From IMG/VR virus record IMGVR_UViG_3300042308_001616, positions 58,861-122,860 of that record: a stretch of DNA of 64,000 nucleotides. One strand, 5' to 3'. The stretch comes from a virus. The notes beneath the pieces were generated by a model, which was given only the letters and a program-made list of their open reading frames with translations, was not told the origin of the DNA and ran no database searches. Each line of letters begins with the position of its first letter. The stretch's first letter is position 1. Below are positions 18,501 through 45,346 of this stretch, piece after piece. The translations under genes and the position numbers were made by a program.

Positions 18501-21500
18501 TAAGCATATATTTGGATAACAAGGATTCGAATTCAAGAACGGTTCAATTTCACACAGAAGGAACGGATGATTATTCTTATGTCATAACGTCTGTTGGTGT
18601 TGTGAATGGAACTTCTGGGTCTTCCGGTTCAAGTGGTTCTACAGGAACTTCCGGATCTTCTGGCTCATCCGGAACTTCTGGAACTTCTGGAACGTCTGGT
18701 TCTTCCGGTAGTGCAGGATCATCAGGTACAAGAGGTTCATCCGGGTCATCAGGAACTTCTGGTTCATCGGGAACTTCTGGTTCGTCTGGAACATCTGGAA
18801 CTTCTGGTTCGTCTGGAACATCAGGTTCGTCTGGTAGTTCTGGTTCATCAGGAAGTTCTGGTTCGTCCGGAACATCTGGAACATCTGGATCTTCTGGTTC
18901 GTCTGGAACATCTGGATCTTCTGGTAGTTCTGGTTCATCAGGAACTTCTGGTTCGTCTGGAACTTCTGGTTCGTCTGGAACTTCCGGTACTTCGGGTTCT
19001 TCCGGTACTTCGGGTTCATCTGGAACTTCCGGTACTTCGGGTTCTTCTGGAACTTCTGGAACATCTGGTTCATCAGGTACTTCGGGCTCTTCCGGAACAT
19101 CTGGTTCATCAGGTACTTCGGGCTCTTCCGGAACATCTGGTTCTTCTGGTAGTTCCGGTACGAGAGGATCATCGGGTTCTTCCGGAACATCTGGGTCATC
19201 CGGAACATCTGGGTCATCCGGAACGTCTGGTTCTTCCGGTTCATCTGGAACTTCTGGAACATCCGGTTCTTCCGGTTCGAGTGGGTCGTCCGGGTCTTCC
19301 GGGTCTTCTGGAACATCTGGTTCTTCCGGAACGTCTGGTTCTTCCGGTAGTTCCGGTACGAGAGGATCATCCGGTTCTTCTGGATCATCGGGAACTTCCG
19401 GGGTAAATGGAATCGACTCTGCGAGTTTTGAGTACACTTATAGTACAACGACCACTGCGTCGGATCCTGGATCAGGTTTCTTCAGACTAAACAACCTAAC
19501 TATGGGTAGTGCGACCTCACTTTACATAGACAGATTTGACAGAAATGGTAATAACGACTTACAAAACTTCTTCAGTTCGCTTACAAACTACGGTTCGACA
19601 AATAGACGAGGTTTCATAAAGATAACTAAACAGAACGACCTTACATGGTTTCAGACATATGAATTTAGTGCGACAACCGATAACACAGGATGGTGGACGA
19701 TTACCATAAATAACGTAATACTCGATGCCAACTTTACAAACAACGATTTGTGTTTTATCAGTTTCAATGTTTCAGGACCAACGGGAACAAGTGGGAGTTC
19801 AGGAACATCTGGTTCTTCCGGTTCATCTGGAACTTCCGGTACTTCGGGTTCTTCTGGAACTTCTGGAACATCTGGTTCATCAGGTACTTCGGGCTCTTCC
19901 GGAACATCTGGTTCATCTGGAACTTCCGGTTCTTCCGGAACGTCTGGTTCTTCTGGTAGTTCCGGTACGAGAGGATCATCGGGTTCTTCCGGAACATCTG
20001 GGTCATCAGGAACATCTGGTTCGAGTGGGTCTTCAGGAACATCTGGTTCTTCCGGTTCATCTGGAACTTCTGGTTCGAGTGGGTCTTCAGGAACATCTGG
20101 TTCTTCCGGTTCATCTGGAACTTCTGGGCCATCCGGGTCTTCTGGGTCATCTGGAACATCTGGTTCTTCCGGGTCATCTGGAACATCTGGTTCTTCCGGG
20201 TCATCTGGAACATCTGGTTCTTCCGGGTCATCTGGAACATCTGGTTCTTCCGGGTCTTCTGGGTCATCTGGAACATCTGGTTCTTCCGGGTCTTCTGGGT
20301 CATCTGGAACATCTGGTTCTTCCGGTAGTGCAGGATCATCAGGTACAAGAGGTTCATCCGGGTCATCAGGAACATCTGGTTCTTCCGGGTCTTCAGGAAC
20401 ATCTGGTTCGAGTGGTTCTTCCGGCACTTCTGGATTACTAAGTCTAACAGGTTCAACTGATAATGGTGTTATAACTCTCAATGGTTCCATTCCAAATGCT
20501 ATAGTTGAAAGTAATCTTACATTTGATGGTAGTATACTAAATGTGACTGGTCGTATTATTGCATCCGCATCAACTTCTACGGACCTTTTAAGACTAACAC
20601 AAGTAGGAACAGGAAACGCTTTTGTTGTAGAGGATAGTACGAATCCGGACATTACCCCGTTTGTTATACAGGGTGATGGAAAAGTCGCCATAGGAACTTC
20701 TTCCACCGTTGCAAACTTAGAGGTTAGAGCCAATGGTGCAAACGGTATATTACTGGGTCAAGATCTTGCAGCGAGTGGACAATCGAGTAGACTTTTCTTC
20801 AGCAACGGAACAGACGGACAACACATAGCAATACTCAATTCAAATAACGGAGGATTCGATTTCAGAACTCTATCAACTGCGAATGTTTCCACTGGAACTC
20901 AAAGGATGACAATTGCAGCAGGTGGTGATGTCTACATAGCACAGTCCCTCGGAATAAACCAACCAACACCTACTGCAAAAATACATGTGGTACCTGGTTC
21001 AACACAATCTGGTCTTATAGTTGCAGGTAATAGTGATCAAGATATGGTCAGGATAACACAGATAGGAACAGGTAACGCAATTATTGTTGAAGATAACACG
21101 AATCCAGACTCAACACCTTTCGTCGTTGATGCATCAGGAAACATAGGTGCAGGAACCGCATCACCATCAACAAAATTACACGTATTCTCTACGACGAGTG
21201 GTGCTATAAGAATAGTCGACGGAACACAGCAGAATGGATACGTACTTACATCCGATGCAAACGGGTTGGCAACATGGCAAGTATCATCTGGTGGTGGTTC
21301 ATCACTGAGTGGTACAATCAACTACGTTCCATTCTACAAAACAACCACAACACTATCATCTACGAGTTCGATACAGGTCTCTGGTGATACAGTCGGAATA
21401 GGAGTTTCATTCTCAAACACCGGTGGACCGAGTACAGACTACAGACTGCACGTAAACTATGGATCTGGTACCTACGGTGTTCTAATTGAAGGTGGTGGTG

Positions 21501-22813
21501 GAATTTCCGAAAACATACCACTTAGATTATGGGACAGTGGAACAGGTACAAACAATATAAATATTTTAGAGTTTGGACACGCAACTGCGAGTCCTAAACT
21601 ATATGTTCCGGGTGCACGTATAAAATCTACAAATCCTGGTTCCGGTGCAACAACAGGAGCTCATTTAATATTAGAAACTTCGTCAATATCAAATCCAACA
21701 TCAACAACTTGGAATACCAATCAACTCTATTTGAGAAATGATGGAAATGTAGGTATCGGAACAAATACACCAACTTCATATTTAACAATAAACACACCAG
21801 GTGGTTCATTGTATAGTGGTGGTTCTACAGGGGAACATGCAATATTAATAGGTAGTCAGTCCACTGGTTCTGTTGCTGCATATATAGGAACCGACGAAAC
21901 ACTTTCCGCGATGTACATACAATCTGGTATAAGAGGTGGTGCCGCAACTCCTATACTACTAAACGCACAGGGTGGAAACATCGGAATCGGTGTGACATCA
22001 CCTTCTGCAAAATTACACGCAGTAACTAATGTATCATCAATTCCGTTGATAATAGCATCCGGATCTACAACGGTTGATTTGGTGAGAATAACGCAGGTCG
22101 GTACAGGAAACGCTTTTGTGGTTGAAGATGCTACAAATCCAGATACCACACCATTTGCTATAACCAACACCGGAAAGGTAAAGGTTGGAACGACCGTCGA
22201 TTCAATCTATTCATCCAATATATATTCGATATCAACGACATATGGATTAGAGGCATATGGTGATTTAGCAGGAGTATACGCACGAGGATTAACTTATGGA
22301 ATTGTAGCAGAAGCGGCTACTGATGGAATGGTAGTTGCAGGTATTATGGCATCTGCAACAAACGACCAATTTATGTATGGAGTATACTACGGTGGAATGT
22401 TCTCGGCAAACTCATCAAATGGTGTCAATTACGCGGTAAGGTTACAGGATGGATCACAAGGATTGAACAAAGTTCTGGTGGACACCATAGGTGACGGATC
22501 TGCCAACTGGAAAAGTGATCTGAGTATAACATCAATCATAGCTTCTGCATCAAGTACTTCTGATATAGTAAGAATCACCCAAACCGGAACAGGAAATGCG
22601 TTAGTCGTTGAAGATTCAACAAATCCAGATGCAACACCTTTTGTTATAACATCTACGGGAAATGTTGCAATAGGAACACAATCTACAAATAACACACTAC
22701 ACGTACAGGGTTCTATGGAACTCACCGGAACATTCTCGGGTAGTAATTCTAATTTCGTAGATGCAAACCTTATAACACAAACCGTTCTACTCTATATGTC
22801 GAACAACACTTAG
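15512..22813 (+). CDS. Giant collagen-like repeat fibre protein 2 (2433 aa)
   Basis: Five Gly-Ser-Ser / Gly-Thr-Ser collagen-like tracts (about 53, 160, 315, 240 and 200 aa) separated by globular beta-rich domains. Four copies of the ITQ.GTGNA.VVED.TNPD.TPFV module. Apparent TTG start at 15512; its N-terminal motif is paralogous to fibre 1. Confidence 0.8.
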   Translation: MARNPKYQIRNLSTDGYGRLVQVVNGVYYDGFGNILSIGSVGSSGIIGGSSGTSGLSGNSGSSGSSGTSGLSGNSGSSGTSGSSGYSGTSGSSGTSGVSDKYKTTTVHTMPVPSVDDIILLESLDTGLAYTVGQSIILAESAYDYLEGIVQSYSPITGDMYVIVKYVVGSPDGPDFTINIDGTTGSSGTSGSSGISGSSGSSGTRGSSGSSGSSGISGSSGTSGSSGESGSSGISGSSGISGSSGTSGSSGESGSSGISGSSGTSGSSGESGSSGTSGSSGSSGASGTSGSSGESGSSGTSGSSGSSGASGTSGSSGTSGSSGSSGSSGTSGSSGESGSSGTSGSSGTSGSSGSSGTGFDTISNPSDNRLLTSDGTTNAAVAESNLTFDGSLLTMIGSSNFGTSSGTQNLYGSVISNDSFSIGTQQFFPQGNNGFSVNENFDASNSTSQTAYHFTSGSNTKNIVFTLAKTGEYTTVFGTDGSSTSNKFVIGSETSNTVFQFKSGLGIQPINLDGGSVMFEVATNSLFAPNIPSGTTETDILVRDGSGYITYRSDLSLSGTSGSSGSAGSSGTSGSSGSSGSSGSSGTSGTSGTSGSSGSSGSSGSSGTSGTSGSSGSAGSSGTSGSSGSSGSSGTSGTSGSSGSSGSSGTSGSSGTSGSSGSSGSSGTSGSSGSSGSSGTSGSSGTSGSSGSSGTSGSSGSSGSSGTSGSSGTSGSSGSSGTSGSSGSSGTSGSSGSAGSSGTSGSSGSSGTSGSSGSTGSSGSSGSAGSSGSTGSSGTSGSSGSSGTRGSSGSSGSTGSSGSSGSAGTSGSSGTSGSSGSAGTSGSSGSAGTSGSSGSSGTSGSTGSSGTSGAQGPQGISAGQIYYFNMSMTASVNGYRSLSTTPLPNGGTYSIETLTGNESGHLVETFMTDPLGFSIIPGGTQRFHLHFLKGAVGDDIEAYVSIRLSDSVGVPIGPTLSSNKQYIGWNDSTTNVEVLTDLTLPTTGIDPTNRMLVSIYLDNKDSNSRTVQFHTEGTDDYSYVITSVGVVNGTSGSSGSSGSTGTSGSSGSSGTSGTSGTSGSSGSAGSSGTRGSSGSSGTSGSSGTSGSSGTSGTSGSSGTSGSSGSSGSSGSSGSSGTSGTSGSSGSSGTSGSSGSSGSSGTSGSSGTSGSSGTSGTSGSSGTSGSSGTSGTSGSSGTSGTSGSSGTSGSSGTSGSSGTSGSSGTSGSSGSSGTRGSSGSSGTSGSSGTSGSSGTSGSSGSSGTSGTSGSSGSSGSSGSSGSSGTSGSSGTSGSSGSSGTRGSSGSSGSSGTSGVNGIDSASFEYTYSTTTTASDPGSGFFRLNNLTMGSATSLYIDRFDRNGNNDLQNFFSSLTNYGSTNRRGFIKITKQNDLTWFQTYEFSATTDNTGWWTITINNVILDANFTNNDLCFISFNVSGPTGTSGSSGTSGSSGSSGTSGTSGSSGTSGTSGSSGTSGSSGTSGSSGTSGSSGTSGSSGSSGTRGSSGSSGTSGSSGTSGSSGSSGTSGSSGSSGTSGSSGSSGTSGSSGSSGTSGPSGSSGSSGTSGSSGSSGTSGSSGSSGTSGSSGSSGTSGSSGSSGSSGTSGSSGSSGSSGTSGSSGSAGSSGTRGSSGSSGTSGSSGSSGTSGSSGSSGTSGLLSLTGSTDNGVITLNGSIPNAIVESNLTFDGSILNVTGRIIASASTSTDLLRLTQVGTGNAFVVEDSTNPDITPFVIQGDGKVAIGTSSTVANLEVRANGANGILLGQDLAASGQSSRLFFSNGTDGQHIAILNSNNGGFDFRTLSTANVSTGTQRMTIAAGGDVYIAQSLGINQPTPTAKIHVVPGSTQSGLIVAGNSDQDMVRITQIGTGNAIIVEDNTNPDSTPFVVDASGNIGAGTASPSTKLHVFSTTSGAIRIVDGTQQNGYVLTSDANGLATWQVSSGGGSSLSGTINYVPFYKTTTTLSSTSSIQVSGDTVGIGVSFSNTGGPSTDYRLHVNYGSGTYGVLIEGGGGISENIPLRLWDSGTGTNNINILEFGHATASPKLYVPGARIKSTNPGSGATTGAHLILETSSISNPTSTTWNTNQLYLRNDGNVGIGTNTPTSYLTINTPGGSLYSGGSTGEHAILIGSQSTGSVAAYIGTDETLSAMYIQSGIRGGAATPILLNAQGGNIGIGVTSPSAKLHAVTNVSSIPLIIASGSTTVDLVRITQVGTGNAFVVEDATNPDTTPFAITNTGKVKVGTTVDSIYSSNIYSISTTYGLEAYGDLAGVYARGLTYGIVAEAATDGMVVAGIMASATNDQFMYGVYYGGMFSANSSNGVNYAVRLQDGSQGLNKVLVDTIGDGSANWKSDLSITSIIASASSTSDIVRITQTGTGNALVVEDSTNPDATPFVITSTGNVAIGTQSTNNTLHVQGSMELTGTFSGSNSNFVDANLITQTVLLYMSNNT

Positions 22814-29215: not shown

Positions 29216-30148
29216 CTAAACTCTTTTTCCAGTTTCTGGATCGTAGTTCATAATAAGAAGTTCAATACCCTTCTCCTTCTCTACACCCTCTGTCTTAATA
29301 ACTGCCGATGGTCTGTGAAACTCCTTCGATGTCCAGATGTATTTATCTTTCGGTAGAATTTCTTCAAGTAACGGGAAGTAGTAATAAGATAAAGACCATC
29401 TCGATTTAGTTGTCTTCAATAGTTCTAATAACCTTCTATGTGAAGCAACTCCAAACGTGTTCTCGTCATCACATCCGTACCAAAACAAACGTCTACCATC
29501 ATCATCATTCTTAACGTCATTGAATCGAGCGTAAGGCGGATCCAGGTAAATATAAGTGTCTTCTGAATCGTATTTACGAATAACCTCCTCAAAGTCCATA
29601 TTATGGAAGTCAGTTATATTCTTCAAACGCTCAGTGTATTTATTCTTCTCTAATTTGTTAATCAAAATACTAAGGTTCAGTTTATCCTTCTTCTTTTTAT
29701 AACCAGTGAATCCACCACCACGAGGATACACACTAGAAAATGATGATGTGATTAAGAACGCATACATAGCCGCTTTATCTAAATCACCAATCTCGAAGTC
29801 CATATCGTCTAAGAAGTCGTTTTGAACGTATTCCCTATAAATTGCCTTATAGAAGTCCCATTTGTCGTCCACAGACGTCGCAGTGCAGTGTAACTTACCA
29901 CCCGGTGCCATCAATGCTTTCAATACTGGAAGGAAGTTTTCTGGATCGGAACAACACTTCATCAGATTGGCCTGATGTCTGTTACGATCATTGAAAACAA
30001 CAGTGTTGAACTCCATCTTAGAGTCTAAATAAATTGCAAAAGAACCAGAGAATGGCTCAATATACGTGGTACACTCCTCGAACGGTATGTTCGGAGTTAT
30101 AAAGGATTGGAAGGCGGCCTTTCCGCCAAAATAAGAGACTATCGACAT
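29216..30148 (-). CDS. dam: DNA N6-adenine methyltransferase (Dam-like, D12 class)
   Basis: N-terminal VSYFGGKAAF and catalytic IYLDPPYA (DPPY) motifs. Confidence 0.8.
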   Translation of the reverse strand: MSIVSYFGGKAAFQSFITPNIPFEECTTYIEPFSGSFAIYLDSKMEFNTVVFNDRNRHQANLMKCCSDPENFLPVLKALMAPGGKLHCTATSVDDKWDFYKAIYREYVQNDFLDDMDFEIGDLDKAAMYAFLITSSFSSVYPRGGGFTGYKKKKDKLNLSILINKLEKNKYTERLKNITDFHNMDFEEVIRKYDSEDTYIYLDPPYARFNDVKNDDDGRRLFWYGCDDENTFGVASHRRLLELLKTTKSRWSLSYYYFPLLEEILPKDKYIWTSKEFHRPSAVIKTEGVEKEKGIELLIMNYDPETGKRV

Positions 30149-30243
30149 TTTTGCTTGATTTTATTAGGTTTTTTTTACTTTTTTCTATATCTGATCTTTG
30201 TCTTACTTATACTTATTGTGATGTCAAAAGTTTCCGTTTTCGA

Positions 30244-30750
30244 TTAAATACCTAATATTGCATCAAGACCAACTCTGTGAACACCACGTAGTTCATCTCT
30301 TACTTTCATAAGTATTTTACCAAGATGGTTCTGTCCTCTACCATTACAGACGCCCCAGAAGGTGTCGTTCCAGGTATTGCCTTCGACCAATTCTTCGTCA
30401 CCGGTTTCGACCAACATCTCTGCTAAAATTTCAATTTTGAATTTCTCTCGTATTGCCCAGTTCATAAAATCGAGTTTCTTCTCGTTCCAGTCTTTTCTTA
30501 TAGACATCTTCTGACCGATTTTCTTTACCATTCCGGGATATGCAATTCGTGCAATCATCTCGCGAAAATCTACGGGTGTATATTGATTTCCGTTAATTAA
30601 TTGTGGACCATTACATTTCATCGCTACATAATAGTGTTCAACGGATGGATAAACTATACCCTGGTGTTCTATCTCACAGGGGTAGAAGTTTGACAGGAAA
30701 CCGTACCTACCTTCGAATTTTTGTATCATAATATTTACCAATATAACCAA
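30244..30750 (-). CDS. NADAR (YbiA-like, DUF1768) domain protein: putative ADP-ribosyl hydrolase
   Basis: GFLSNFYPCEIEHQGIVYPSVEHYYVAMK matches the NADAR core (F.LSNF..........Y.S.EH.YQA.K). Confidence 0.7.
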   Translation of the reverse strand: MVILVNIMIQKFEGRYGFLSNFYPCEIEHQGIVYPSVEHYYVAMKCNGPQLINGNQYTPVDFREMIARIAYPGMVKKIGQKMSIRKDWNEKKLDFMNWAIREKFKIEILAEMLVETGDEELVEGNTWNDTFWGVCNGRGQNHLGKILMKVRDELRGVHRVGLDAILGI

Positions 30751-31022
30751 GCAGCGTCTTTATAATTATCGTCAAACTCAGCATTATAACCTTTTAGTAT
30801 TTTATGAAGTGTTTGTTTTTGTTTTGCACGTCTTACACGGTTTAACATCTTTCTGAAATATTTAGGTGCAGAGTTGTAGTAGGCGTTCCACTCATAAAAG
30901 TTATTATCAAGATATGAAGATACCCAAGCATCTCTGGATTCAGATACGTCACGACCAAGAAACTCCATACGGAGTGCCCTGAACAACTTCTCTCTTTCCC
31001 AGTGTTTGTTACCGTGCTTCAT
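30735..31022 (-). CDS. Hypothetical protein (95 aa)
   Basis: ORF; overlaps the NADAR gene start by 16 nt. Confidence 0.4.
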   Translation of the reverse strand: MKHGNKHWEREKLFRALRMEFLGRDVSESRDAWVSSYLDNNFYEWNAYYNSAPKYFRKMLNRVRRAKQKQTLHKILKGYNAEFDDNYKDAAWLYW

Positions 31023-31488: not shown

Positions 31489-31521
31489 AGTTGATTCGGA
31501 CAGTACAAACTGCCCGAATCA
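31489..31521. terminator. Terminator hairpin (TTGATTCGG-14 nt-CCGAATCAA) downstream of the SPFH gene
   Basis: 9-bp stem; T-rich on both sides (TTTTTTATG on the minus strand after the hairpin). Confidence 0.45.
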
Positions 31522-31526
31522 ATTTG

Positions 31527-32471
31527 TTATTTTACATTTACCAATGTGTTGCTGCCGTTACCAAGCACGGTCTCAGAGTTGTGACCATCCCATTTCTCAA
31601 TCTTTTTGTATTCTACAAACAATGGAGTAAGTTTTTGTTGTGTAAGTTCCATCGCCTTAGCTTTTGCAGATGCGTTGATTACCGTTTCTGCGGAGTCGGC
31701 TCTTGCAACAGCAACTTTTCTCTCACCATCTGCGACTGCAGCGATTGCTTGTTGTTTAGAAGCCTCTGCTTGTTGCACAGATTTAGTTTTAGCGATGATT
31801 GCTTCTTGAAGTGCCTCTGGTGGAATGATGTTTGATCTCATCTGTGATACTATGAACCACTTAGATAATCTTAAGTTACATTCTGCAACAATTGCAATTT
31901 CAAATGCTTGACGGTGTCCGAAGATTGAATCAACCTCCCAGGTATTAGCAACGTCATTTACTGCACCAACAATCGCGTTCTTTAGCCAACCTTGCTCTAC
32001 TTCTTTGATAGGCAAACGTAGGTTCACAAACATATCTCCAACTGCGGTAGGTTTCAAAGAGTAGTTGAACGAAGGTTTGATGTCGGCCGGGAAACCACCT
32101 TTGGTAATTACTTGTTGTTGGTCGAACTCTATGTGCTGCTGGAACGTAGGAAACTCATATAAGTTCTCTGTCCAGGTGTTGTAAACAACCCAACCTGTTT
32201 TGTACTGATACTTAGAAACACCTCTATTGTCCCCAGTAAGGTTCACTTTAATTCCGACGTGACCCGCATCTACTCTTTCGATAGCGAACGGCTGGATGAA
32301 TGCGAAGATAAGTAACCCGACACCGGCAACGATACCGATTGTGACCGACTTCCGACCCTCGGCCTTCTGTGTAGTGTTGTTGTAACCTGCATCTTGTATC
32401 GTCCTGATACCTGTGATGATTTTGTAGGCAGCGAAACCTAAGGCCACTAGTGCCAAAATTGTAGTTATCAT
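31527..32471 (-). CDS. SPFH / band-7 (stomatin-prohibitin-flotillin-HflK/C) domain membrane protein
   Basis: N-terminal TM helix, ERVDAGHVGIKV core and a C-terminal Ala/Gln/Glu-rich coiled coil (QQAEASKQQAIAAVADGERKVAVARADSAE), typical of HflK/HflC-like proteins. Confidence 0.7.
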   Translation of the reverse strand: MITTILALVALGFAAYKIITGIRTIQDAGYNNTTQKAEGRKSVTIGIVAGVGLLIFAFIQPFAIERVDAGHVGIKVNLTGDNRGVSKYQYKTGWVVYNTWTENLYEFPTFQQHIEFDQQQVITKGGFPADIKPSFNYSLKPTAVGDMFVNLRLPIKEVEQGWLKNAIVGAVNDVANTWEVDSIFGHRQAFEIAIVAECNLRLSKWFIVSQMRSNIIPPEALQEAIIAKTKSVQQAEASKQQAIAAVADGERKVAVARADSAETVINASAKAKAMELTQQKLTPLFVEYKKIEKWDGHNSETVLGNGSNTLVNVK

Positions 32472-32666
32472 TTATTTGTTTTTATTGGTTATACGAGTGT
32501 AAATATAGTAAATAAAACCGAATGTATATAAAAATATGAAAATAATTATTACATTTTGTAAAATTGAGTTTACAGGACGACTTATGAAAGTGTCAAGTAG
32601 ATAACCGGTTAGAGATAACCACAAAAAAATTCCTAATAAAGGAGTAAGTATTCTAAATAATTTCAT
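32472..32666 (-). CDS. Small membrane protein (64 aa, two predicted TM helices), contiguous with the SPFH gene
   Basis: Hydrophobic ORF whose stop abuts the SPFH start codon (operon-like). Confidence 0.45.
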   Translation of the reverse strand: MKLFRILTPLLGIFLWLSLTGYLLDTFISRPVNSILQNVIIIFIFLYTFGFIYYIYTRITNKNK

Positions 32667-34491: not shown

Positions 34492-36642
34492 TTATATTAA
34501 CTTTTCAAATTTAATCTTTCCACAATCATAAACTCTAAAAAGTTTATTTATTTGTGCATATTCTGACTCTGTCAAATATGTTTTCGTTTTAGATTTTTTA
34601 TATCTGGATTTATGAACCCTATTACCATCAACTATATACTTATAGTCTGGTAGACTTTCACTCACCTTTTCAAATCCTAATTGATAATAAAGATTACCAA
34701 CAGACCAATCACGATCCGCATAACTGATAACCCTTTTAGGTTTAAAGTTTCTAATAAAATAACTAAATAGTTTTGATGCACCACCAATTACCGTAGTATT
34801 TATAGAATTACAAAATCTATTGATGTTCCAATCAGATTCTGACATTTTTTTACGACCTTCGAAATGATCAAATGTCATCAAGCTAACTAATTGATTATTA
34901 AAAATCAAACCTAATTTCAAACAACTATTAACCTTACCCTGAATATGATTTTTTTCTAAAAAAGTCATAGCTGTTTTTGCATCAACTTCTATTATAGAAC
35001 ATTTTCTAGCATAAATAGTATTACTAATTTTATTCAACATATTTGAAATTTGTGACTCAATTATACTCCTTCTCATAACCCAATCATCCTCCCAAATATG
35101 AATAATACGTATATCTTTATTCCTAAAAAAATTAGTTTTATTTATGTGGTAATTTTTATTCTTATATTCACTACTGTGCCAATAAAGACCATTAAACTCA
35201 AATCCAATACCCAGATCAGGAAGATAAATATCTATCTCTAAATCATCTCTATAACCAGATATTACCTCACCATCATATATCCCAGTTATATAATTAAGTA
35301 ATTCTTTTTCCATTATAGACTTATTATCCCCAATAGGATAACAAATGGTACAAATAGGATTGCCTGAATTGGTTCTTTTTATATAATTGTCAACACCTAT
35401 TATAAATTTATGGTCTTTACCACAGTCACATATAAATAAACTATTCGAGTCAGAAATGTATTGAATATAATTTAAGTCATTTGCAACAATATATTTATTC
35501 TTTCTAAATTCTTCAGATTTTTGAATATTATCAATTCCAAATTGATTAATATTTGTCAATTTTGTTTTTTCTTTAGACTCATTTGTTTTAGAATAATTAT
35601 CAACACCATACTTTTCCAGACTCGTATTAACAACTTTATATTTAAACAAAGATGACTTAGAATGGTGTTCTACACCATATCTTTCTAAATTGGTATCTTT
35701 AGACTTCTTCTTAAAACTATCACTCTGATAATACCAATCAACACCATATTTTAGTTTATTAGTTATTTTAGTACGATTATTATACTCATCAGTCTGTGCA
35801 TAATATTTTACACCATATCTCTCTAAATTAGTCTTTGATGATTTATTTCTGAAGTCATCACTCTGATAATAGAATTCTGAACCATATTTTTCTTTATTTG
35901 TTTTAGTAACACGATTAAGAAATTCATCCGTCTTTGAATAATGATTTACACCATATTTCTCTAAATTAGTATTTAATGTCTTTTCTTTATACTCATCTGT
36001 TTGTGTATAATACTCTACACCATATTTCTCTAAATTTGTATTTATAGTCTTTTCTTTATACTCATCCGTTTGTGTATAATGTTCTACACCATATTTTTCG
36101 AGATTTGTATTTACTCTTTTGTCCTTTACCGAATCTAATTGTGATATGTGAGAAACTCCATATTTACTATTTATATTGTCGGACCATTTTTTCCTTACCT
36201 CCTCATTTTGAAAACTAGACTTATGGCCATATCTTTCTAAATTAGTATCCTCAATTTTTTTCTTTACTAAATCACTTTTTGCAACATTAGTAACTCCGTA
36301 TTTCTCTAAATTTGTTTTAATCCTCTTCTCTTTGGTTGATTTGTCAGATTGTGCACATTTAGGAGAACAATAATTTCTATAACCATCTAACCAGTTTTTA
36401 TTGAATGTAGTAGGATTACCACAACAACATAAAAATTTATTATCTATATCATTTACCCAATACCATAACTTTTCTTTAAAAGAAATATCTTCTATATTGG
36501 AACAAAAATCGTTTATTGTAGTAACAAGTTCTTCATAATTTTTCTCAAAAAAAGATTCACGTAATCTTGATGATGAACCATCAAGTATATCTAATATTAT
36601 TTTTTTCCTTTCTTCTATCATAAAGTATATATAAAGTAACAT
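34492..36642 (-). CDS. Putative free-standing homing endonuclease: Zn-ribbon N-terminus, ~12 tandem 22-aa repeats, Vsr-like PD-(D/E)xK nuclease domain
   Basis: N-terminus CCCGNPTTF...YCSPKC. Repeats of consensus TNLEKYGVxxYxQTDEYKEKT. Nuclease motif EIDIYLPDLGIGFEFNGLYWHS (E..G..WH as in Vsr/Tlr8p-PBCV-like HEs). Sits beside the major capsid gene. Confidence 0.55.
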   Translation of the reverse strand: MLLYIYFMIEERKKIILDILDGSSSRLRESFFEKNYEELVTTINDFCSNIEDISFKEKLWYWVNDIDNKFLCCCGNPTTFNKNWLDGYRNYCSPKCAQSDKSTKEKRIKTNLEKYGVTNVAKSDLVKKKIEDTNLERYGHKSSFQNEEVRKKWSDNINSKYGVSHISQLDSVKDKRVNTNLEKYGVEHYTQTDEYKEKTINTNLEKYGVEYYTQTDEYKEKTLNTNLEKYGVNHYSKTDEFLNRVTKTNKEKYGSEFYYQSDDFRNKSSKTNLERYGVKYYAQTDEYNNRTKITNKLKYGVDWYYQSDSFKKKSKDTNLERYGVEHHSKSSLFKYKVVNTSLEKYGVDNYSKTNESKEKTKLTNINQFGIDNIQKSEEFRKNKYIVANDLNYIQYISDSNSLFICDCGKDHKFIIGVDNYIKRTNSGNPICTICYPIGDNKSIMEKELLNYITGIYDGEVISGYRDDLEIDIYLPDLGIGFEFNGLYWHSSEYKNKNYHINKTNFFRNKDIRIIHIWEDDWVMRRSIIESQISNMLNKISNTIYARKCSIIEVDAKTAMTFLEKNHIQGKVNSCLKLGLIFNNQLVSLMTFDHFEGRKKMSESDWNINRFCNSINTTVIGGASKLFSYFIRNFKPKRVISYADRDWSVGNLYYQLGFEKVSESLPDYKYIVDGNRVHKSRYKKSKTKTYLTESEYAQINKLFRVYDCGKIKFEKLI
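35500..36340 (-). repeat. Tandem ~66-bp coding repeats (22-aa KYG repeat units) inside the homing endonuclease gene
   Basis: Visible periodicity in DNA and protein (TNLEKYGV.. x ~12). Confidence 0.6.
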
Positions 36643-36784: not shown

Positions 36785-38497
36785 TTAGTTAAGGAATTGA
36801 TTCTCATCAGTAACGTTAATAGTCATAAATTGTTTGTGTGGGAACCATCCAACCTCGGCAACTGCATACCTAGATCTTAGTAACATTCTTGGTGCAAAAG
36901 TTGCTTCAGAAATAACTGAGATAGATTGAGCCATTAAGTAAGGAACGAAGATGATACCTGGTTGATCAGGGTTATTCTTTCTACCTAAAACGATTCTGTT
37001 GTCATTATATCTCATGTATGGATCAACATAGATAGCGATATCTCCGATTGAACCTACAGGGTATAATTGACCTTGTCCGTTTAATTTAGACTTCAATGGG
37101 TTAATTGTATAACCAGCGATGTCTTGAAGAGCTGCAGCAAGACCCCCGTTTGTGATAAGGTATTGAGCAGGACCTACACGACCCTCAGTTGCGATGAAGT
37201 TAGATGCGTGAGCAATCTTAGTAATCAATTTTCTTTGAACTGCGTGAGTAGTTTCACCACCAATATTAGCAGAAGCAGCATAAGTAGTATCTAAATCGAA
37301 GATTGTCATACCAGCTGTGTATCCAGCAACGTTAGTGTTAGCAGCAGGAGCAGAAGCTCTGTTTAATTGTCCCATTTCGAAAATCTTAGCAACGATTTGC
37401 TTAGAAATTGTTTGTGACAATTCGTTAACAAGGATAGATTCCATTTTTTGAACGATATCCATACCTGTGTTAGCTTTGATATCTTCAATCTCAGTTCTTC
37501 TAAGTGCAGAAGATACTTCGATAGTACCAACTTGGATAGTCTTAGATGAAATCTTAGGTCCGATAACACCAGCATAAGAATCATCATCGATATCCCTGTT
37601 CATTGGATAATCACCAGACTGAACGTTAGCTGTCCAGTTTGCAGAGAAACCTGGGATGTGATCTTCTAATGTAGATACTAACTCGATAGTAGGTGTAGCA
37701 GTAACAGCTTGAGTACCAATGTTCTTGATTTGCGAAGCCATAGACTGAGTAGGGTTGAAAGAGTTTCTAGTTGCGTCGAAAGACCATGCAGTCAAAGCAG
37801 AACCAACTGCAGTGTGAGCAGTGTTTGCTTGTCTCCAAGCTCTGAACATTGGGTAACCATCTACTCTTGAGAATCCTAAGAATTCAAGAACTCCTACTTT
37901 ACTAGCAGATTCTGCTGGAGCTGTAGTTACGAGTGGGTTAGAAGAACCGAAACCATTTACGAATAATCTACCACCTTGAAGACCACCTGTAGTATTTGTT
38001 GTTCCTGCGGCAAAACCAGCTTCTAATGCAGTTTTGATATCAGCTTGGTTAGCTGGAGTTGTAGCCTTAAGTTTGAAAACTTGTGGTCTCTCATCACCAG
38101 AACCTAATCTTGTGTCATCATATTGGAAATCGATGTAAAGTAAATCGATTTTCGGACCTGGAGTTGGTTTAACAGCAACAAGGTCAAGACCAATAGTTTG
38201 AGCAGCAATTTTCATAGCTACTGGTAAAAGGTTTTGTCCTACGTCTCCAGAACCTGCTACGTTACCAAGTGCATTTGAGTAGTTACCTGGGTTACCCGCA
38301 AATGAACCAACTGTAGCATTTGAAACTGGACCCATACCTGCTACGTTAGAAGCATTTACGTATGCGTTTTCGTTGATTGAGTGAAACTCAGCGTATTCCG
38401 CCATCCATTCTACTCTATCACCAATGACACCCATATTCTCGAGAACTGGTGCCCATTTTTTAGTGGCTTTCGCCTTGTCTATCCTAATGTGTGACAT
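36785..38497 (-). CDS. Major capsid protein, T4 gp23-like
   Basis: 570 aa. Segment LLPVAMKIAAQTIGLDLVAVKPTPGPKIDLLYIDF resembles T4 gp23 LIAFDICGVQPMNSPTGQVFALRAVY. Gly/Ala/Thr-rich and GC-richer than surroundings (highly expressed). A TATAAATATATAG late-promoter-like motif lies ~40 nt upstream. Confidence 0.85.
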   Translation of the reverse strand: MSHIRIDKAKATKKWAPVLENMGVIGDRVEWMAEYAEFHSINENAYVNASNVAGMGPVSNATVGSFAGNPGNYSNALGNVAGSGDVGQNLLPVAMKIAAQTIGLDLVAVKPTPGPKIDLLYIDFQYDDTRLGSGDERPQVFKLKATTPANQADIKTALEAGFAAGTTNTTGGLQGGRLFVNGFGSSNPLVTTAPAESASKVGVLEFLGFSRVDGYPMFRAWRQANTAHTAVGSALTAWSFDATRNSFNPTQSMASQIKNIGTQAVTATPTIELVSTLEDHIPGFSANWTANVQSGDYPMNRDIDDDSYAGVIGPKISSKTIQVGTIEVSSALRRTEIEDIKANTGMDIVQKMESILVNELSQTISKQIVAKIFEMGQLNRASAPAANTNVAGYTAGMTIFDLDTTYAASANIGGETTHAVQRKLITKIAHASNFIATEGRVGPAQYLITNGGLAAALQDIAGYTINPLKSKLNGQGQLYPVGSIGDIAIYVDPYMRYNDNRIVLGRKNNPDQPGIIFVPYLMAQSISVISEATFAPRMLLRSRYAVAEVGWFPHKQFMTINVTDENQFLN

Positions 38498-38583: not shown

Positions 38584-40683
38584 TTAGATGTTTTTGAACC
38601 TTTCCATTATTGCAGACATTTCATCGTCAGACAACTTATCCTCTTGGATGAGTGCTTCGTGAGATACAAGCTTTTTAGTAGTGGATTCGTTCGTTTTGAG
38701 GTTTCTGGTTGACCAGAAATGCTCGATTTGAGACTCAGTCTTCAACATATCAGCTGGATAAAGTCTTGCTTGTGATAGCAAAGATTTTTTACCTGATTCG
38801 TTTAATTGACTCCAGATTGACTTAGTGTTTTCTGGCATAAGTCTTACTATTCTCTCTTCGAGTGTCTCAGTTGTAGTAGAAAGTGCCTCTGAAATGAGTG
38901 CAAGAACTTCTTTCTGTGTGAAATAACTTCTTTCGTTTATGTGAAGTTTCACAGCTTCTTGCTCCTCGTTAGTGAGTGCGTAGAAACTATCTACTTGTGA
39001 TTTGGACATAAACTTAAGAAAGTTCAAGTCACTTGTCTCGGAAACTTTACGTTTTTTAGCTTCTTCGATTAATTTATCAATAGATTCTGATAATTCAGAA
39101 TCTGAATTTCCTGTAATATTTTCATATAAGTCATCGTGAGATTCTTCCTCGTGAGATTCTTCCTCGTGTGCGTTTACTTCTTCAGGTGAAGTTTCAGCAA
39201 CACCGTTAGGTCCACACTCTTCTTCTTCCACTTCTTCTTCTTCTTCTTCTTCTTTTTCGTTATCTAATGAAGCAAAGTGATCAGTAAGAACTGGGAAACC
39301 ATCCTCTGCAGATTCGAAAACTTTTCCACCATTCAATTTCTCTGTAATTAAACCAGCGTAAGAAATAGTTTTGTCTAAGTTCTCAGCGATGTATTCAGAA
39401 TAAGCGATGTTATCATCAAGGTGCTCAGCGATGTACTCAGAGTAAGCGATGTTACCTTCTACGTGCTCAGCTAAGTATTCAGAATAAGCGATTGAATTAT
39501 CAACGTGCTCAGCGATGTACTCAGAATAAGCGATATTTTTATCTAAGTTCTCAGCAATGTACTCAGAATAAGCGATATTTTTATCTAAATTCTCAGCAAT
39601 GTACTCAGAGTAAGCGATATTTTTATCTAAGTTCTCAGCAAGGTACTCAGAATAAGAAATGTTTTTATCTAAATTCTCAGCGATATACTCAGAATAAGAA
39701 ATGTTTTTATCTAAATTCTCAGCAACATACTCAGAATAAGCGATATTTTTGTCTAAGTTCTCAGCAAGGTACTCAGAATAGTTAACTGCCTTCTCAAGGT
39801 TCTCAGCTAAATAATCATTATGCTTGATAAGTTTTTCGGTAGTCTCTTTTAAAGACTTGTTCTCGTTTACCATAATCTGAACTTTTTCAGCTAAGTAGTC
39901 AAGATATTGGACAACTTTAGAGTTATCATTGTTGAGTTGCTCGTAATACTCAATAAGTTGCTCCAACTTCTTAGGGTCCATATTGCCTTTAGAGATGGCG
40001 TTTTTGACTTGCTTCTTAGTGGTAGCGAGCTCTTTGACCAAGTACTGCGAGTAGTCAGTCAACTGTTGTTTGGTAACGTACTCGTTCCTGTTCATGTTGA
40101 ATAAATCATTTATTTTTGACTCATCGGACATCTCATATATCCTAAAGTTAGATTTCGGGTTATCGAGGCCAAGAGATTCATTTAGAACTTTCACATTCAT
40201 TTTGGCAGAGGCGAACCCCGGATCAGCCACAATGTCGTATGTGAAAAGCTTCTTCAATGAGACCGTGCCATCAGATTCAGTGATACCTGCTGCGCGTGAA
40301 GAAACGAAAAGAGGACATCCGTCATCGACGAGTGCCTTAGCTTCTTTACCCCAATAGGTGCTCAATAGTCTGATTTCGCCCGATACCAGGTTAGATTCCT
40401 TAACATACTCAGCTTTAGTGATTATGTGGGAAGCCCTGGAAAGTGAGGTGTCGAAAACATCCGGGTGGTCGAACTCTCCATAGACTACACCGAGGTTATT
40501 CATTCTCTCGTTCATCTCTTGAAGTGCCGGAAGGAATCTGTTAGCAGTATAAACCCTCTCATTTCTGTTCTTAATATCGAACTCGGTGAAGGTTCCACCT
40601 AAAACATAATCCTTGTTACCAGACCCGTTGCTCTCTCTCACAAGAGAGTTTGTAGAGTTTTCTACAATCAATACTGGTTTCAT
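38584..40683 (-). CDS. Prohead core protease (T4 gp21-like) fused to a repeat-rich scaffolding region (gp22-like coiled coil)
   Basis: N-terminus GEFDHP...SGEIRLLSTYWGKEAKALVDDGCPLFVSSRAAG resembles T4 gp21 (GELGHP). Middle has ~14 tandem copies of AENLDKNIAYSEYI. C-terminus is acidic and helical (EEEEEEEVEEEE). Confidence 0.7.
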   Translation of the reverse strand: MKPVLIVENSTNSLVRESNGSGNKDYVLGGTFTEFDIKNRNERVYTANRFLPALQEMNERMNNLGVVYGEFDHPDVFDTSLSRASHIITKAEYVKESNLVSGEIRLLSTYWGKEAKALVDDGCPLFVSSRAAGITESDGTVSLKKLFTYDIVADPGFASAKMNVKVLNESLGLDNPKSNFRIYEMSDESKINDLFNMNRNEYVTKQQLTDYSQYLVKELATTKKQVKNAISKGNMDPKKLEQLIEYYEQLNNDNSKVVQYLDYLAEKVQIMVNENKSLKETTEKLIKHNDYLAENLEKAVNYSEYLAENLDKNIAYSEYVAENLDKNISYSEYIAENLDKNISYSEYLAENLDKNIAYSEYIAENLDKNIAYSEYIAENLDKNIAYSEYIAEHVDNSIAYSEYLAEHVEGNIAYSEYIAEHLDDNIAYSEYIAENLDKTISYAGLITEKLNGGKVFESAEDGFPVLTDHFASLDNEKEEEEEEEVEEEECGPNGVAETSPEEVNAHEEESHEEESHDDLYENITGNSDSELSESIDKLIEEAKKRKVSETSDLNFLKFMSKSQVDSFYALTNEEQEAVKLHINERSYFTQKEVLALISEALSTTTETLEERIVRLMPENTKSIWSQLNESGKKSLLSQARLYPADMLKTESQIEHFWSTRNLKTNESTTKKLVSHEALIQEDKLSDDEMSAIMERFKNI
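39290..39815 (-). repeat. Tandem 42-bp repeats (14-aa unit YSEYIAENLDKNIA, ~12-14 copies) within the protease-scaffold gene
   Basis: Near-identical 42-nt units, e.g. CTCAGCGATGTACTCAGAATAAGCGATATTTTTATCTAAGTT repeated. Confidence 0.7.
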
Positions 40684-43612: not shown

Positions 43613-45346
43613 TTAGAATTCGAATTCGGCACCACCTTGAGCACCACCCTGTGCTGGAGGAGCTTGAGCACCACCCTGTGCCGGAGGAGCCTGAGCACCA
43701 CCTTGTGCCGGAGGAGTTTGAGCACCACCTTGAGCACCACCCATATCACCACCTTGAGCACCACCCATATCACCACCGCCACCACCTTGAGCACCACCTT
43801 CACCCGGGACTCCGGAACCGATAGTTGTTGCATCTTTGGTCCAATATCTTGCATTCTCTGCTTTCTCTTCTGGTGTAAGTTTGAATATGTGGTCCATTAT
43901 ATACTCTATGTGGAAATATGGTTTCTCACCATTCATAACACCAAGCATTGTTCCTACAATACCTGCTTTCTTCTCTAGGTTACCCAACTTTTTCCACTCT
44001 TCAAAGACCTGATTAGAGTAAAAGACTATGTCCATTTGGTTCATAAACCTATCATCTTCAATCAATTCTGGAAATTCGATGAGCATCTGCATCTTTAGTG
44101 GTTTAACAATTATCTCTTTGAAGTTAGATCTAAGTCTACCTATGAAGTTGTGAAACTTAATCTCATCTCTCGTCATCTCAGAAGCCTCGGTTACTAAGTT
44201 ACCACCACCACTTTCACCTTCGAAACGGTTTAGTGGAATCTTACTTGCACGTTTCAATGCCTGGTGAAACCATTTTAGCATTCCGTCTTCGTTTAGGTCG
44301 TGTCCCTGTGGTGACTTCAACTCCATTGAAGGAGAACCCGCATCACCTTCTGGAAACCAAATCTGTTTGTTGAAAGGAAGATGTTTAGAGCCATTGATTG
44401 TGAGTGTACCTAAAGTGTCATCCCACTCAACTTCCTCAGAGTAATCGTGTATCAGTTGACCTATCTGTTCTTCGGCTCTCTGTCTGGAAAGACCTTTAAT
44501 AGGAATTTTAAACTCCTGATAAAGTGTTGCATTGATAATGTTGAACATTATCTTAGTCTGTTCAAGAATTTTGAGCTGGTTGTATGGTCTTATGAGTCCT
44601 TCTACGTATGATGTCTCAGAATAGTCATTCTGTGTAGAGAATGATATAAAAACAATCTGTGAGTCTAGGAATATTCTTCTAAGTTGTGGATCTTCCGGAT
44701 ATTGTATCCAGAGGTGTCCTACGTTTGGTTCGTATGCAGGAAGTATCGTCTCTGGACGTAATCTATTGAATGCTACTATGTTTTTCTTTTTGTCGTCATA
44801 TACAAGCTCTATGGCTACATATCCATCTACGAGGAAATCCTTCATCATATTAAAGGCGGTTATACTATCTGAAAATCCATATTTGTTGTATATTGATTCG
44901 AAGTATTCTTGATACTTATCATGTATTTCTTTGTTATAATCCGAACTTAGTGGTCTTGGTGAACAGAAATCACGATCATCGTTATAAACAATACATTCAT
45001 CTGCAACTTGACTCACAAAGTCTCTTATCTCATCTTTTATAGAGTATTCTCTTAGAATTCTTCGTTTATCTGGATAAGACCTATCGAGATATGGTACAGA
45101 CTTCCTGTTCAAAACCGATGCCACTGCCCTGGATGAGAAAAAATCATACATCGAATTTCCTTTAGAAGCATATGGATCCTCATTGATTCCTATACCAACC
45201 TGGTTACGTATGATCATATCATCATAGTTCATTCCATGGTTAGAAAGGTTTCTAAGTATCCTATTAAAGAAGCCCTTATTTTCTCCTGAGTTTTGTATAG
45301 AACCCAGATTCTGTTCATTGTTGTTAAAATAATTATAAGAGGCCAT
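43613..45346 (-). CDS. Portal vertex protein, T4 gp20-like, with low-complexity GGAQ/PPAQ repeat C-terminal tail
   Basis: VSQVADECIVYNDDRDF (cf. T4 gp20 VSEIVSDAIVYEDDTEV) and LKWFHQALKRASKIPLNRF (cf. IRWFRQALYMALRVPLSRI). C-terminal ~70 aa are GGAQGG / AQAPPAQGG repeats. Confidence 0.85.
   Translation of the reverse strand: MASYNYFNNNEQNLGSIQNSGENKGFFNRILRNLSNHGMNYDDMIIRNQVGIGINEDPYASKGNSMYDFFSSRAVASVLNRKSVPYLDRSYPDKRRILREYSIKDEIRDFVSQVADECIVYNDDRDFCSPRPLSSDYNKEIHDKYQEYFESIYNKYGFSDSITAFNMMKDFLVDGYVAIELVYDDKKKNIVAFNRLRPETILPAYEPNVGHLWIQYPEDPQLRRIFLDSQIVFISFSTQNDYSETSYVEGLIRPYNQLKILEQTKIMFNIINATLYQEFKIPIKGLSRQRAEEQIGQLIHDYSEEVEWDDTLGTLTINGSKHLPFNKQIWFPEGDAGSPSMELKSPQGHDLNEDGMLKWFHQALKRASKIPLNRFEGESGGGNLVTEASEMTRDEIKFHNFIGRLRSNFKEIIVKPLKMQMLIEFPELIEDDRFMNQMDIVFYSNQVFEEWKKLGNLEKKAGIVGTMLGVMNGEKPYFHIEYIMDHIFKLTPEEKAENARYWTKDATTIGSGVPGEGGAQGGGGGDMGGAQGGDMGGAQGGAQTPPAQGGAQAPPAQGGAQAPPAQGGAQGGAEFEF

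Follow-up and report, generated by a model that had tools for sequence, protein, structure and literature searches.

To our knowledge, all of the solved SPFH assemblies (HflK/C, prohibitin, stomatin, flotillin, erlin and QmcA-YbbJ) are membrane-attached rings or cages. HflK/C pairs with the protease FtsH and prohibitin pairs with the m-AAA protease, the relevant structures being PDB 7vhp, 7wi3 and 8rrh. SPFH genes are also found in bacteriophages; they were listed for T4-like phages by 2006 (PMC1524935), MbpS of Staphylococcus phage K has been discussed as an SPFH protein (PMC7150955), SPFH genes have been discussed for Pseudomonas phages (PMC8540360), and according to a 2026 paper it still 'remains unclear' why phages have them (PMC13239085). 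A search of the literature for experimental work on phage SPFH function recovered annotations and speculation only. Here we describe a pair of adjacent genes, one coding for an SPFH protein of 314 amino acids and the other for a membrane protein of 64 amino acids (the partner), in a 64,000-nucleotide stretch of viral DNA (positions 58,861 to 122,860 of IMG/VR record IMGVR_UViG_3300042308_001616). This whole stretch is referred to below as the window, and its features are listed in Table 1.

The SPFH gene is a member of a known and common phage family, and the pair are fairly ordinary auxiliary membrane genes. Our analysis adds three modest points: the SPFH protein is prohibitin-like and probably oriented towards the periplasm, its small membrane partner is conserved, and the pair was captured from a host. 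By analogy with the solved assemblies, we see about an even chance that the SPFH protein forms a ring or cage, together with the partner, at the outer side of the host inner membrane.

The SPFH protein and its closest structural relatives

The two genes are both on the minus strand and in the same reading frame, and the TAA stop codon of the partner abuts the ATG of the SPFH gene with no base between them. A hairpin and T-run follow the SPFH stop codon directly, which fits a transcript ending there. A preliminary description of the locus, made from the sequence alone, had proposed a phage-encoded SPFH/Band-7 membrane protein, and on this point Pfam, PHROG 200, the AlphaFold2 model and Foldseek agree. 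Pfam Band_7 (PF01145) matches residues 66–242 (E=3.9e-16; 60 bits against a gathering cut-off of 23.6 bits), and PHROG 200 matches over the full length (E=1.7e-48; residues 1–313 against profile positions 44–359 of 379). The AlphaFold2 monomer model, built from an alignment of 106 relatives, has a mean predicted local distance difference test score (pLDDT) of 90.2. In place of the single N-terminal transmembrane segment described earlier there are two hydrophobic helices, at approximately residues 2–22 and 43–64; the first begins right after Met1, with no charged residue ahead of it. The Ala/Gln/Glu-rich C-terminal coiled coil of the preliminary description does appear in the model, as a 62-residue helix (residues 219–280). 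It aligns with the coiled coil of PHB1 when the family profile is used, and is expected to serve in oligomerization. The tail that follows is flexible in the monomer model (pLDDT <50 at residues 304–314), and its conserved W294/G296 motif may form an oligomer cap; the motif is compatible with a cap and proves nothing.

Comparison of the model with the PDB by Foldseek returns full-length SPFH-type cage proteins as its top 45 matches (prohibitin, HflK/C, erlin, stomatin, QmcA, flotillin and vault), and comparison of folds alone fails to separate the SPFH subfamilies. The subfamilies were therefore ranked by searching the PDB with a profile of 106 family members. PHB1 (E=1.7e-21) and PHB2 (E=1.3e-18) match from the membrane anchor to the coiled coil, whereas HflK (E=6.9e-9), QmcA (E=4.4e-8) and HflC (E=5.5e-8) match over the C-terminal half only, and erlin, stomatin and flotillin are weaker than HflC. 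The prohibitin match is thus 12–13 orders of magnitude better than that to HflK or HflC. Because this ranking sets PHB1 and PHB2 apart from the other subfamilies where fold comparison does not, we call the SPFH protein prohibitin-like, by best-hit logic rather than by a subfamily phylogeny.

The NCBIfam equivalog models for HflK and HflC gave no match to the single sequence at E≤0.1, and this, together with the far weaker profile score than for prohibitin, rules out HflK/HflC orthology. Of the earlier label 'HflK/HflC/stomatin-type', the SPFH assignment stands and the HflK/HflC family assignment does not. There is also only one SPFH gene, and the gene upstream of it codes for the 64-residue two-helix protein, not for a second SPFH paralogue as in the HflK/HflC type of pair. 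A phmmer search of the PDB with the single sequence matched no SPFH chain; the matches that it gave to Fis1 and ATP synthase subunit b (E>0.04) were set aside as chance. The ratio of nonsynonymous to synonymous substitution rates (dN/dS), computed here and below on equal-length pairs only, is 0.038 for the SPFH gene among pairs of the viral clade, with dS up to >1.

A conserved two-helix partner

The partner is composed of a first helix at approximately residues 6–24, a loop (DTFISRPVNS, residues 25–34) and a second helix at residues 35–56, and both of its termini are basic. That a 64-residue protein with two transmembrane segments lies immediately upstream was part of the preliminary description, and the open reading frame (ORF) is indeed present, conserved and under purifying selection. 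A search for homologues of the partner alone matched only the identical sequence, on five contigs (the longest of 248,751 bp), and its relatives were therefore located by their position beside SPFH genes. We examined 134 loci with SPFH relatives at 49–97% identity, drawn from IMG/VR contigs, metagenome contigs and genomes. A two-helix ORF of 55–98 codons is directly upstream of the SPFH gene in approximately 127 of them, ending between −14 and +23 nucleotides from the SPFH start, and overlaps of 4 or 8 nucleotides are very common. The loci supplied 90 unique partner genes. The motif of the loop is [DE]-x-[YF]-[IVM]-[IL]-[SN]-R-[PE], with a conserved Gln after it; in the window's partner the nearly invariant residues include S29, R30 and Q37. 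The median dN/dS of the partner is 0.135, with values below 0.5 in 20 of the 21 informative pairs, and this purifying selection indicates that it is a real gene.

The genes that flank the pair vary among these loci: examples are a clamp loader accompanied by a PD-(D/E)XK nuclease, an AAA ATPase beside 2OG-Fe(II) oxygenases, and a peptidase together with an NADAR gene. As the flanks differ while the pair stays together, it is the pair and not its neighborhood that is conserved.

We considered whether the partner might be NfeD, as in the SPFH-NfeD operons. Neither the partner nor five of its relatives match Pfam NfeD (PF01957), and 64 residues leave no room for the OB-fold; it is not an NfeD protein. 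We also note that in one Chitinophagaceae metagenome-assembled genome (MAG; JADJOC010000003.1, locus L121, 3947..4945) the C-terminal half of the partner is in frame with the SPFH ORF, giving a 332-residue product that is either a genuine fusion or a long-read assembly indel error.

Membrane topology

The SPFH domain of this family begins with a conserved [ER]-[IV]-D-A-G-H-V-G (ERIDAGHVG). A single short N-terminal hydrophobic segment is present in 84 of the aligned family members; in 69 of these 84 a Cys is no more than five residues from the start of the SPFH domain, examples being LLSSC-TRIDAG and, in N4 gp20, LTSC-YDRVEPG with the lipobox LTSC. This is the pattern of a lipoprotein signal peptide, which would export the domain in most of the family, and it accounts for the 'lipoprotein' label of PHROG 200. 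The SPFH protein of the window has no Cys before the SPFH start and carries instead an uncleaved two-helix hairpin ending in QPF. It belongs to a clade of 22 of the 106 sequences in which an uncleaved helix ending at Q60-P61 takes the position of the signal peptide, with an extra helix before it; within the clade P61 is invariant and Q60 is present in at least 90%.

Charge bias is consistent with the same orientation. Over 100 unique clade sequences the loop between the two helices sums to a net +62, which suggests that it is cytoplasmic, and the 20 residues after the second helix sum to −54, which suggests that they are outside. From the lipoprotein-type relatives and this bias, the phage SPFH family most likely faces the periplasm; for the protein of the window the most likely topology predicted from sequence places the N-terminus outside, the short basic loop on the cytoplasmic side, and both the SPFH domain and the coiled coil on the periplasmic side. 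The partner (81 unique sequences) has net charges of +55 in the N-terminal tail, −45 in the loop and +133 in the C-terminal tail, a pattern that predicts both termini to be cytoplasmic and the conserved loop to be periplasmic, on the same side as the SPFH domain. HflK/C and the mitochondrial prohibitins have the orientation proposed here, and stomatin, QmcA and the flotillins the opposite one.

Prevalence and host origin

A phage copy of an SPFH gene is not unusual, given the reports since 2006 (PMC1524935) and the 729 phage records in which we find a homologue by tblastn, all below 60% identity. These include 272 Staphylococcus records as well as N4-like and crAss-like phages, Lak megaphages, and phages of Pseudomonas, Klebsiella, Erwinia and Bacillus. 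A library of 1.84 billion cluster representatives yields 1220 clusters of the family at E≤1e-3, and close relatives (72–94% identity) are abundant in metagenomes, on contigs of up to 275 kb.

A scan of one genome per prokaryotic species, with a narrow alignment that samples close cellular relatives only, identified 46 genome loci. All of them are in Bacteroidota (Chitinophagaceae, Saprospiraceae, Sphingobacteriaceae and Flavobacteriia), some come from cultured isolates with contigs of 0.3–2.3 Mb, and nearly all have the same partner upstream of the SPFH gene. In three isolates that we examined the neighbors are cellular (TonB-dependent receptor, M20 peptidase, ABC-F ATPase, ROK, SDR, GDPD, SusD, GH97 and TrmB), and no phage genes are beside the pair. 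In a neighbor-joining tree the IMG/VR copies, including that of the window, group as a single clade, with the genome copies as its sister. As the same pair sits among housekeeping genes in Bacteroidota chromosomes, the phage pair is of host origin, and the simplest reading of these sequence comparisons is that a Bacteroidota phage lineage captured a host two-gene module once and has kept it under selection since.

At the level of individual phage genomes the pair is accessory. In the 635-kb huge phage LR745206 the flanking methyltransferase, NADAR, small-protein and peptidase genes are kept, while the block of SPFH gene, partner and a 79-codon ORF is missing. This absence between the same flanking genes, along with the variable genomic neighbors, would be expected if the pair were a dispensable passenger, a pair of host genes with no significant role in infection; in P. 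aeruginosa, moreover, tests of virulence and stress traits showed no pronounced phenotypes for SPFH deletion mutants (PMC13086221). However, both genes are under strong purifying selection in the viral clade, the viral copies form a diversified clade, and the pair is kept together across many viral contigs, and we find a passenger status improbable.

Pairing in distant phages

Thirteen more distant phages were examined for ORFs beside the SPFH gene. A two-helix ORF is directly upstream in N4 (gp19, with an 8-nucleotide overlap), Ruegeria phage RpAliso, Pseudomonas phage Ostro, Prevotella megaphage Lak-B5, the Stx phage phiP27 (4-nucleotide overlap) and Burkholderia phage PR1. Phage K (MbpV), Bacillus phage Phrodo and Enterococcus phage KEN11 have a small one-helix ORF adjoining the SPFH gene, and no two-helix ORF is upstream in FL-1, Klebsiella phage KB57, Erwinia phage Harbringer or cr128_1, the last of which has a membrane ORF downstream. 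Three of the partners were scanned against PHROGs, where PHROG 1130 ('membrane protein') matches N4 gp19 (E=1.4e-20) and Ostro (E=5.5e-5) and, marginally, RpAliso (E=0.024). PHROG 1130 also matches the N-terminal extensions of three longer SPFH proteins from the cluster-representative library, P0254 (E=8e-8), P0209 (E=8e-6) and P0214 (E=3e-4). In P0254 a strongly basic linker joins the partner-like domain to the signal-like helix. All three proteins are natural partner-SPFH fusions, classic evidence that both parts work together, although the argument holds for the PHROG 1130 (N4 gp19 type) family only. The alternative that the extensions are fused members of the partner family of the window's own clade was rejected, since a hidden Markov model of 23 clade partners scored them no better than a reversed-sequence control. 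The phage SPFH family usually travels with a small two-helix membrane protein, and is fused to it in some proteins.

Two of these two-helix ORFs are unannotated: one of 62 codons in phiP27 (AJ298298.1, locus L141, 589..777) and one of 83 codons in Lak-B5 (locus L140, 455..706), each directly upstream of an SPFH lipoprotein gene. Their loops (VPFLISMKD in phiP27 and IPTLLSVTS in Lak-B5) resemble that of N4 gp19. We also noted that the SPFH gene of phiP27 is misannotated as a 'putative serine protease' and that of Bacillus phage Phrodo as 'DNA polymerase I'.

The distant phages bear on a second possible role, one directed at the cell envelope, with the pair either excluding superinfecting phages by blocking entry of competitor DNA, or setting lysis timing by organizing or restraining holin-type proteins. 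Exported phage lipoproteins and small inner-membrane proteins are classic exclusion agents, such as T5 Llp and P22 SieA (PMC9586334, PMC10883804), and N4 gp19-gp20 adjoins gp18, whose annotation reads 'superinfection exclusion'; the pair of temperate Pseudomonas phages is in the regulator/integrase region. As to lysis, mbpS of phage K and the holin-like one-helix gene mbpV have the endolysin gene lysK on one side and the lytic transglycosylase gene tgl on the other (PMC7150955), and the size and topology of the partner, with both ends cytoplasmic, are those of class II holins. However, no holin or exclusion family is matched significantly (N4 gp19 against Phage_holin_3_6 gives only E=0.038), the ORF list, Pfam and PHROG show no lysis genes adjacent to the pair in the window, and the position of the chromosomal pair among Bacteroidota housekeeping genes argues for a general cellular membrane role over a weapon peculiar to phages. 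An envelope-directed function is on balance rather unlikely.

A model for the pair and its weak points

A ring or cage is proposed because all SPFH assemblies solved to date have this form, attached to the membrane and held together through the C-terminal coiled coil. The pair would be two co-expressed membrane genes of host origin in a lineage of large Bacteroidota phages. The SPFH protein would be anchored in the inner membrane by its two-helix hairpin, with domain and coiled coil facing the periplasm, and would assemble into a homo-oligomeric ring or cage, anchored by a ring of hairpins, that encloses a small area of the inner membrane; the W294/G296 tail could close it as a cap. The partner, itself a two-helix hairpin, would lie in or beside the anchor ring as an obligate subunit or a client. 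When expressed by the phage, the pair might add to or replace the host copy, and a plausible benefit would be the maintenance of inner-membrane organization or protein quality control through a long infection.

Several observations weigh against this model. Cage formation and contact between the SPFH protein and the partner are argued by analogy only, and the charge bias of the SPFH hairpin is moderate. The partner is absent beside close SPFH homologues in Flavobacterium phage FL-1 and at two further loci (L012 and L014), where a non-membrane ORF is upstream, and is also missing next to the SPFH gene in several other phages; it is not indispensable everywhere. The window's partner does not match the PHROG 1130 profile at E≤1 (hmmscan), and alignment of the clade partners with gp19-like sequences by hhalign gives a probability of 1.1%, albeit with the loops in register. 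With no detectable homology, its link to the gp19 type and to the fusions is one of position and architecture only. The neighbor-joining tree has no support values, and some of the MAG contigs could be phage DNA. Lastly, head genes lie a few kilobases upstream on the same strand, which bears on when the SPFH gene may be expressed.

A more specific variant, in line with the preliminary description and in our view unlikely, is that the protein acts as an HflK/C-like regulator of FtsH, its periplasmic cage enclosing or sequestering FtsH hexamers and altering substrate turnover in favor of the phage. Both of the SPFH systems with the periplasm-type orientation pair with FtsH-type AAA proteases, which makes FtsH the obvious candidate for what such a cage would enclose, and for a family closest to prohibitin and probably facing the periplasm, the topology would permit contact with FtsH. 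Published work on Pseudomonas phages has already raised the idea (PMC8540360). The phage also encodes a ClpS homologue, has a tmRNA-like RNA beside the pair, and has an M20/M28-like peptidase gene two genes upstream. However, no HflK or HflC model is matched, the SPFH gene is single rather than one of a heteromeric pair, cellular SPFH proteins have many clients other than FtsH, and in relatives the pair is beside clamp-loader, PD-(D/E)XK or 2OG-Fe(II) oxygenase genes, its linkage to ClpS, the tmRNA-like RNA and the peptidase not being conserved.

The ClpS homologue was correctly recognized in the preliminary description (Pfam ClpS, 63.2 bits against a 23-bit cut-off, E=1.9e-17). The tmRNA-like match scores 32.8 bits, below the Rfam gathering score of 47, with E of ∼1e-11 for the region searched; its 5' end is GGGGAUGUCAUGGAUUCG and its 3' end CAUCUCCACAA, and the alignment is good in the tRNA-like part but poor in the pseudoknot. 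An ARAGORN scan called no tRNA or tmRNA, and Rfam at the gathering threshold gave nothing in the window. A similar match is beside the SPFH gene in two of the three closest relatives searched (L010 and L011, not L009), and not in L001, L003, L005 or L007. The 338-residue peptidase resembles M20/M28 and PepT metallopeptidases only weakly, with scores under the curated cut-offs, and its homologue in LR745206 is longer, at 452 residues. An M20 peptidase gene is also beside the chromosomal pair at one locus (L124) and at neither of the other two chromosomes examined, which is probably coincidence. The preliminary description saw in ClpS and the SPFH protein a deliberate manipulation of host proteostasis; the case for such a program is weak, as ClpS is 25 kb away, the neighborhoods of the pair vary, and LR745206 keeps the flanks without the pair. 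The proteostasis theme is suggestive, a lead and not a finding.

Genomic context and other features of the window

Matches to terminase, head, protease, portal and tail fiber genes flank the locus on both sides, and the window is thus phage DNA. The region has approximately 68% DNA identity to 'huge phage' assemblies of 635–642 kb. The SPFH gene is on the same strand as the genes for the major head protein and the head protease and a few kilobases downstream of them, an arrangement that would suit a virion-associated or assembly protein. A homologous 'SPFH lipoprotein' (Sajous1 gp200) was retrieved with three peptides in the virion proteome of a Vi01-like phage, although this count is very low and the protein is listed as 'miscellaneous' (PMC10892097). 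We consider a virion role very improbable in view of the two membrane helices and the membrane partner, the cellular orthologues in non-prophage chromosomal contexts, the prevalence of lipoproteins among the relatives, and the related huge phage that lacks the gene yet keeps the structural neighbors.

PADLOC defense models gave no match for the SPFH protein, the partner or the 79-codon ORF; a weak match of the peptidase to a type II methyltransferase model (E=8.5e-4) was taken as chance. Downstream of the tmRNA-like gene, three genes on the minus strand (29216..31022), for the D12-class methyltransferase, the NADAR-domain protein and a 95-codon ORF, are syntenic with LR745206. A 716-codon ORF (34492..36642, minus strand) separates the major head protein gene from the peptidase/SPFH block; it is in a markedly AT-rich stretch (GC content 0.277, compared to ∼0.36 for the window) and contains many tandem repeats of a motif like 'TNLEKYGV.HY.QTDEYKEK'. 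Its DNA resembles that of Lak megaphages and of a 'Hef-like homing endonuclease' from a Campylobacter phage, which suggests a mobile insertion of homing-endonuclease type. A 2433-codon ORF with a TTG start (15512..22813, plus strand), in the GC-richest part of the window (0.44–0.47), comes after a 1193-residue tail-fiber-like protein with collagen-like repeats and presumably codes for another fiber or structural protein.

Table 1. Positions of the SPFH pair, its parts, and other genes and features in the window
Feature	Position	Strand	Basis or remark
Two-helix membrane partner gene	32472..32666	-	64-residue ORF directly upstream of the SPFH gene
SPFH/Band-7 gene, prohibitin-like, PHROG 200	31527..32471	-	314-residue ORF; Pfam, PHROG, AlphaFold2, PHB1 profile match
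First membrane helix, residues 2-22	32406..32468	-	AlphaFold2 helix 2-27; MITTI start conserved
Second membrane helix, residues 43-64, ends at Q60-P61	32280..32345	-	AlphaFold2 helix 33-58
Alpha/beta SPFH core, residues 62-212	31836..32288	-	AlphaFold2, Pfam, alignments; starts with conserved ERVDAGHVGIKVN
62-residue Ala/Gln/Glu-rich helix 219-280 and short helix 283-292	31596..31817	-	AlphaFold2
C-terminal tail with KWDG motif	31530..31595	-	Among 106 sequences W294 is invariant and G296 present in ≥90%
Terminator-like hairpin	31491..31522	-	14-bp stem, then CTTTTTT, directly after the SPFH stop codon
tmRNA-like match, Rfam RF00023	31077..31447	-	Full-length; in a 500-nt ORF-free gap directly downstream of the SPFH gene
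NADAR-domain protein gene	30244..30750	-	
D12-class N6-adenine DNA methyltransferase gene	29216..30148	-	
Peptidase-family protein gene, 338 residues	32924..33940	-	Two genes upstream of the pair; PHROG 4191 'peptidase', E=6.6e-69
Major head protein gene	36785..38497		
Head protease gene	38584..40683		
Portal gene	43613..45346		
Tail fiber gene	11883..15464		
ClpS homologue, 93 residues	57545..57826	+	Just upstream of the large terminase gene
Large terminase gene	58061..60205		Opposite strand to the ClpS ORF

Comparison with known SPFH systems

SPFH genes are annotated in hundreds of phage genomes without an established function, and our analysis narrows this question rather than solving it. 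Among the known systems close to the pair are the chromosomal pairs of Bacteroidota such as Pollutibacter soli JS81, Pseudoflavitalea rhizosphaerae and Danxiaibacter flavus, with 53–67% identity across the genome loci. They share the hairpin-SPFH architecture and an upstream partner of 55–65 residues with an E-Y-L-I-N-R loop, and mostly have a 4-nucleotide overlap (ATGA) between the genes; they differ in being cellular genes among housekeeping neighbors, and form the sister clade to the viral copies. The PHROG 200 phage family (N4 gp20, phage K MbpS/ORF28, RB43 ORF139c and crAss-like SPFH proteins) shares the ERIDAGHVG start and the C-terminal KWDG, and many of its members have a small membrane ORF abutting as here. 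However, these proteins have only 23–31% identity to the SPFH protein of the window, and most have a lipoprotein signal peptide with its Cys where the window protein has an uncleaved hairpin ending in QPF, with a partner that does not match PHROG 1130.

Among solved structures, the best relatives by both profile and Foldseek are the prohibitins PHB1/PHB2 (PDB 8rrh, 9o6s and 9unl), which share an N-terminal anchor and have the SPFH domain and coiled coil on a non-cytoplasmic side (the intermembrane space, corresponding to the periplasm). Structural identity is 15–17%, and prohibitin is heteromeric, from two paralogues, whereas one gene is present here; unlike the phage protein, the prohibitins have neither a two-helix partner gene nor a KWDG tail. 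E. coli HflK/HflC-FtsH (PDB 7vhp, 7wi3 and 9cz1) has the same fold (Foldseek 1.1e-10 to HflC) and, as is probable for the phage protein, faces the periplasm and is anchored through N-terminal helices. The sequence relationship is much weaker, though, at E of ∼1e-8 over the C-terminal half only, and the window has no second paralogue. The SPFH-NfeD operons (QmcA-YbbJ, PDB 8z5g; PH1511-PH1510; FloA-NfeD) also have a translationally coupled gene for a small membrane protein, often upstream as in the window, and in QmcA-YbbJ the helices of the partner join the anchor ring (Tan et al. 2024, as cited in PMC13086221). The partner of the window differs in having neither the NfeD OB-fold nor a protease domain, and the SPFH-NfeD complexes face the cytoplasm whereas the phage family probably faces the periplasm.

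Taken further, these comparisons would allow a bolder proposal, speculative and on the whole unlikely, in which a small two-helix protein and an exported prohibitin-like SPFH protein constitute an unrecognized, NfeD-independent two-component system at the periplasmic side of the inner membrane. It would be shared by Bacteroidota and many unrelated phages (N4 gp19-gp20, phiP27, Lak and the lineage described here), and phages might use it during infection to enclose one particular machine of the host inner membrane, most obviously FtsH, and thereby reprogram the turnover of membrane proteins. N4 gp19-gp20, which has the same layout as the pair of the window, is a tractable model in which such ideas can be approached by experiment.

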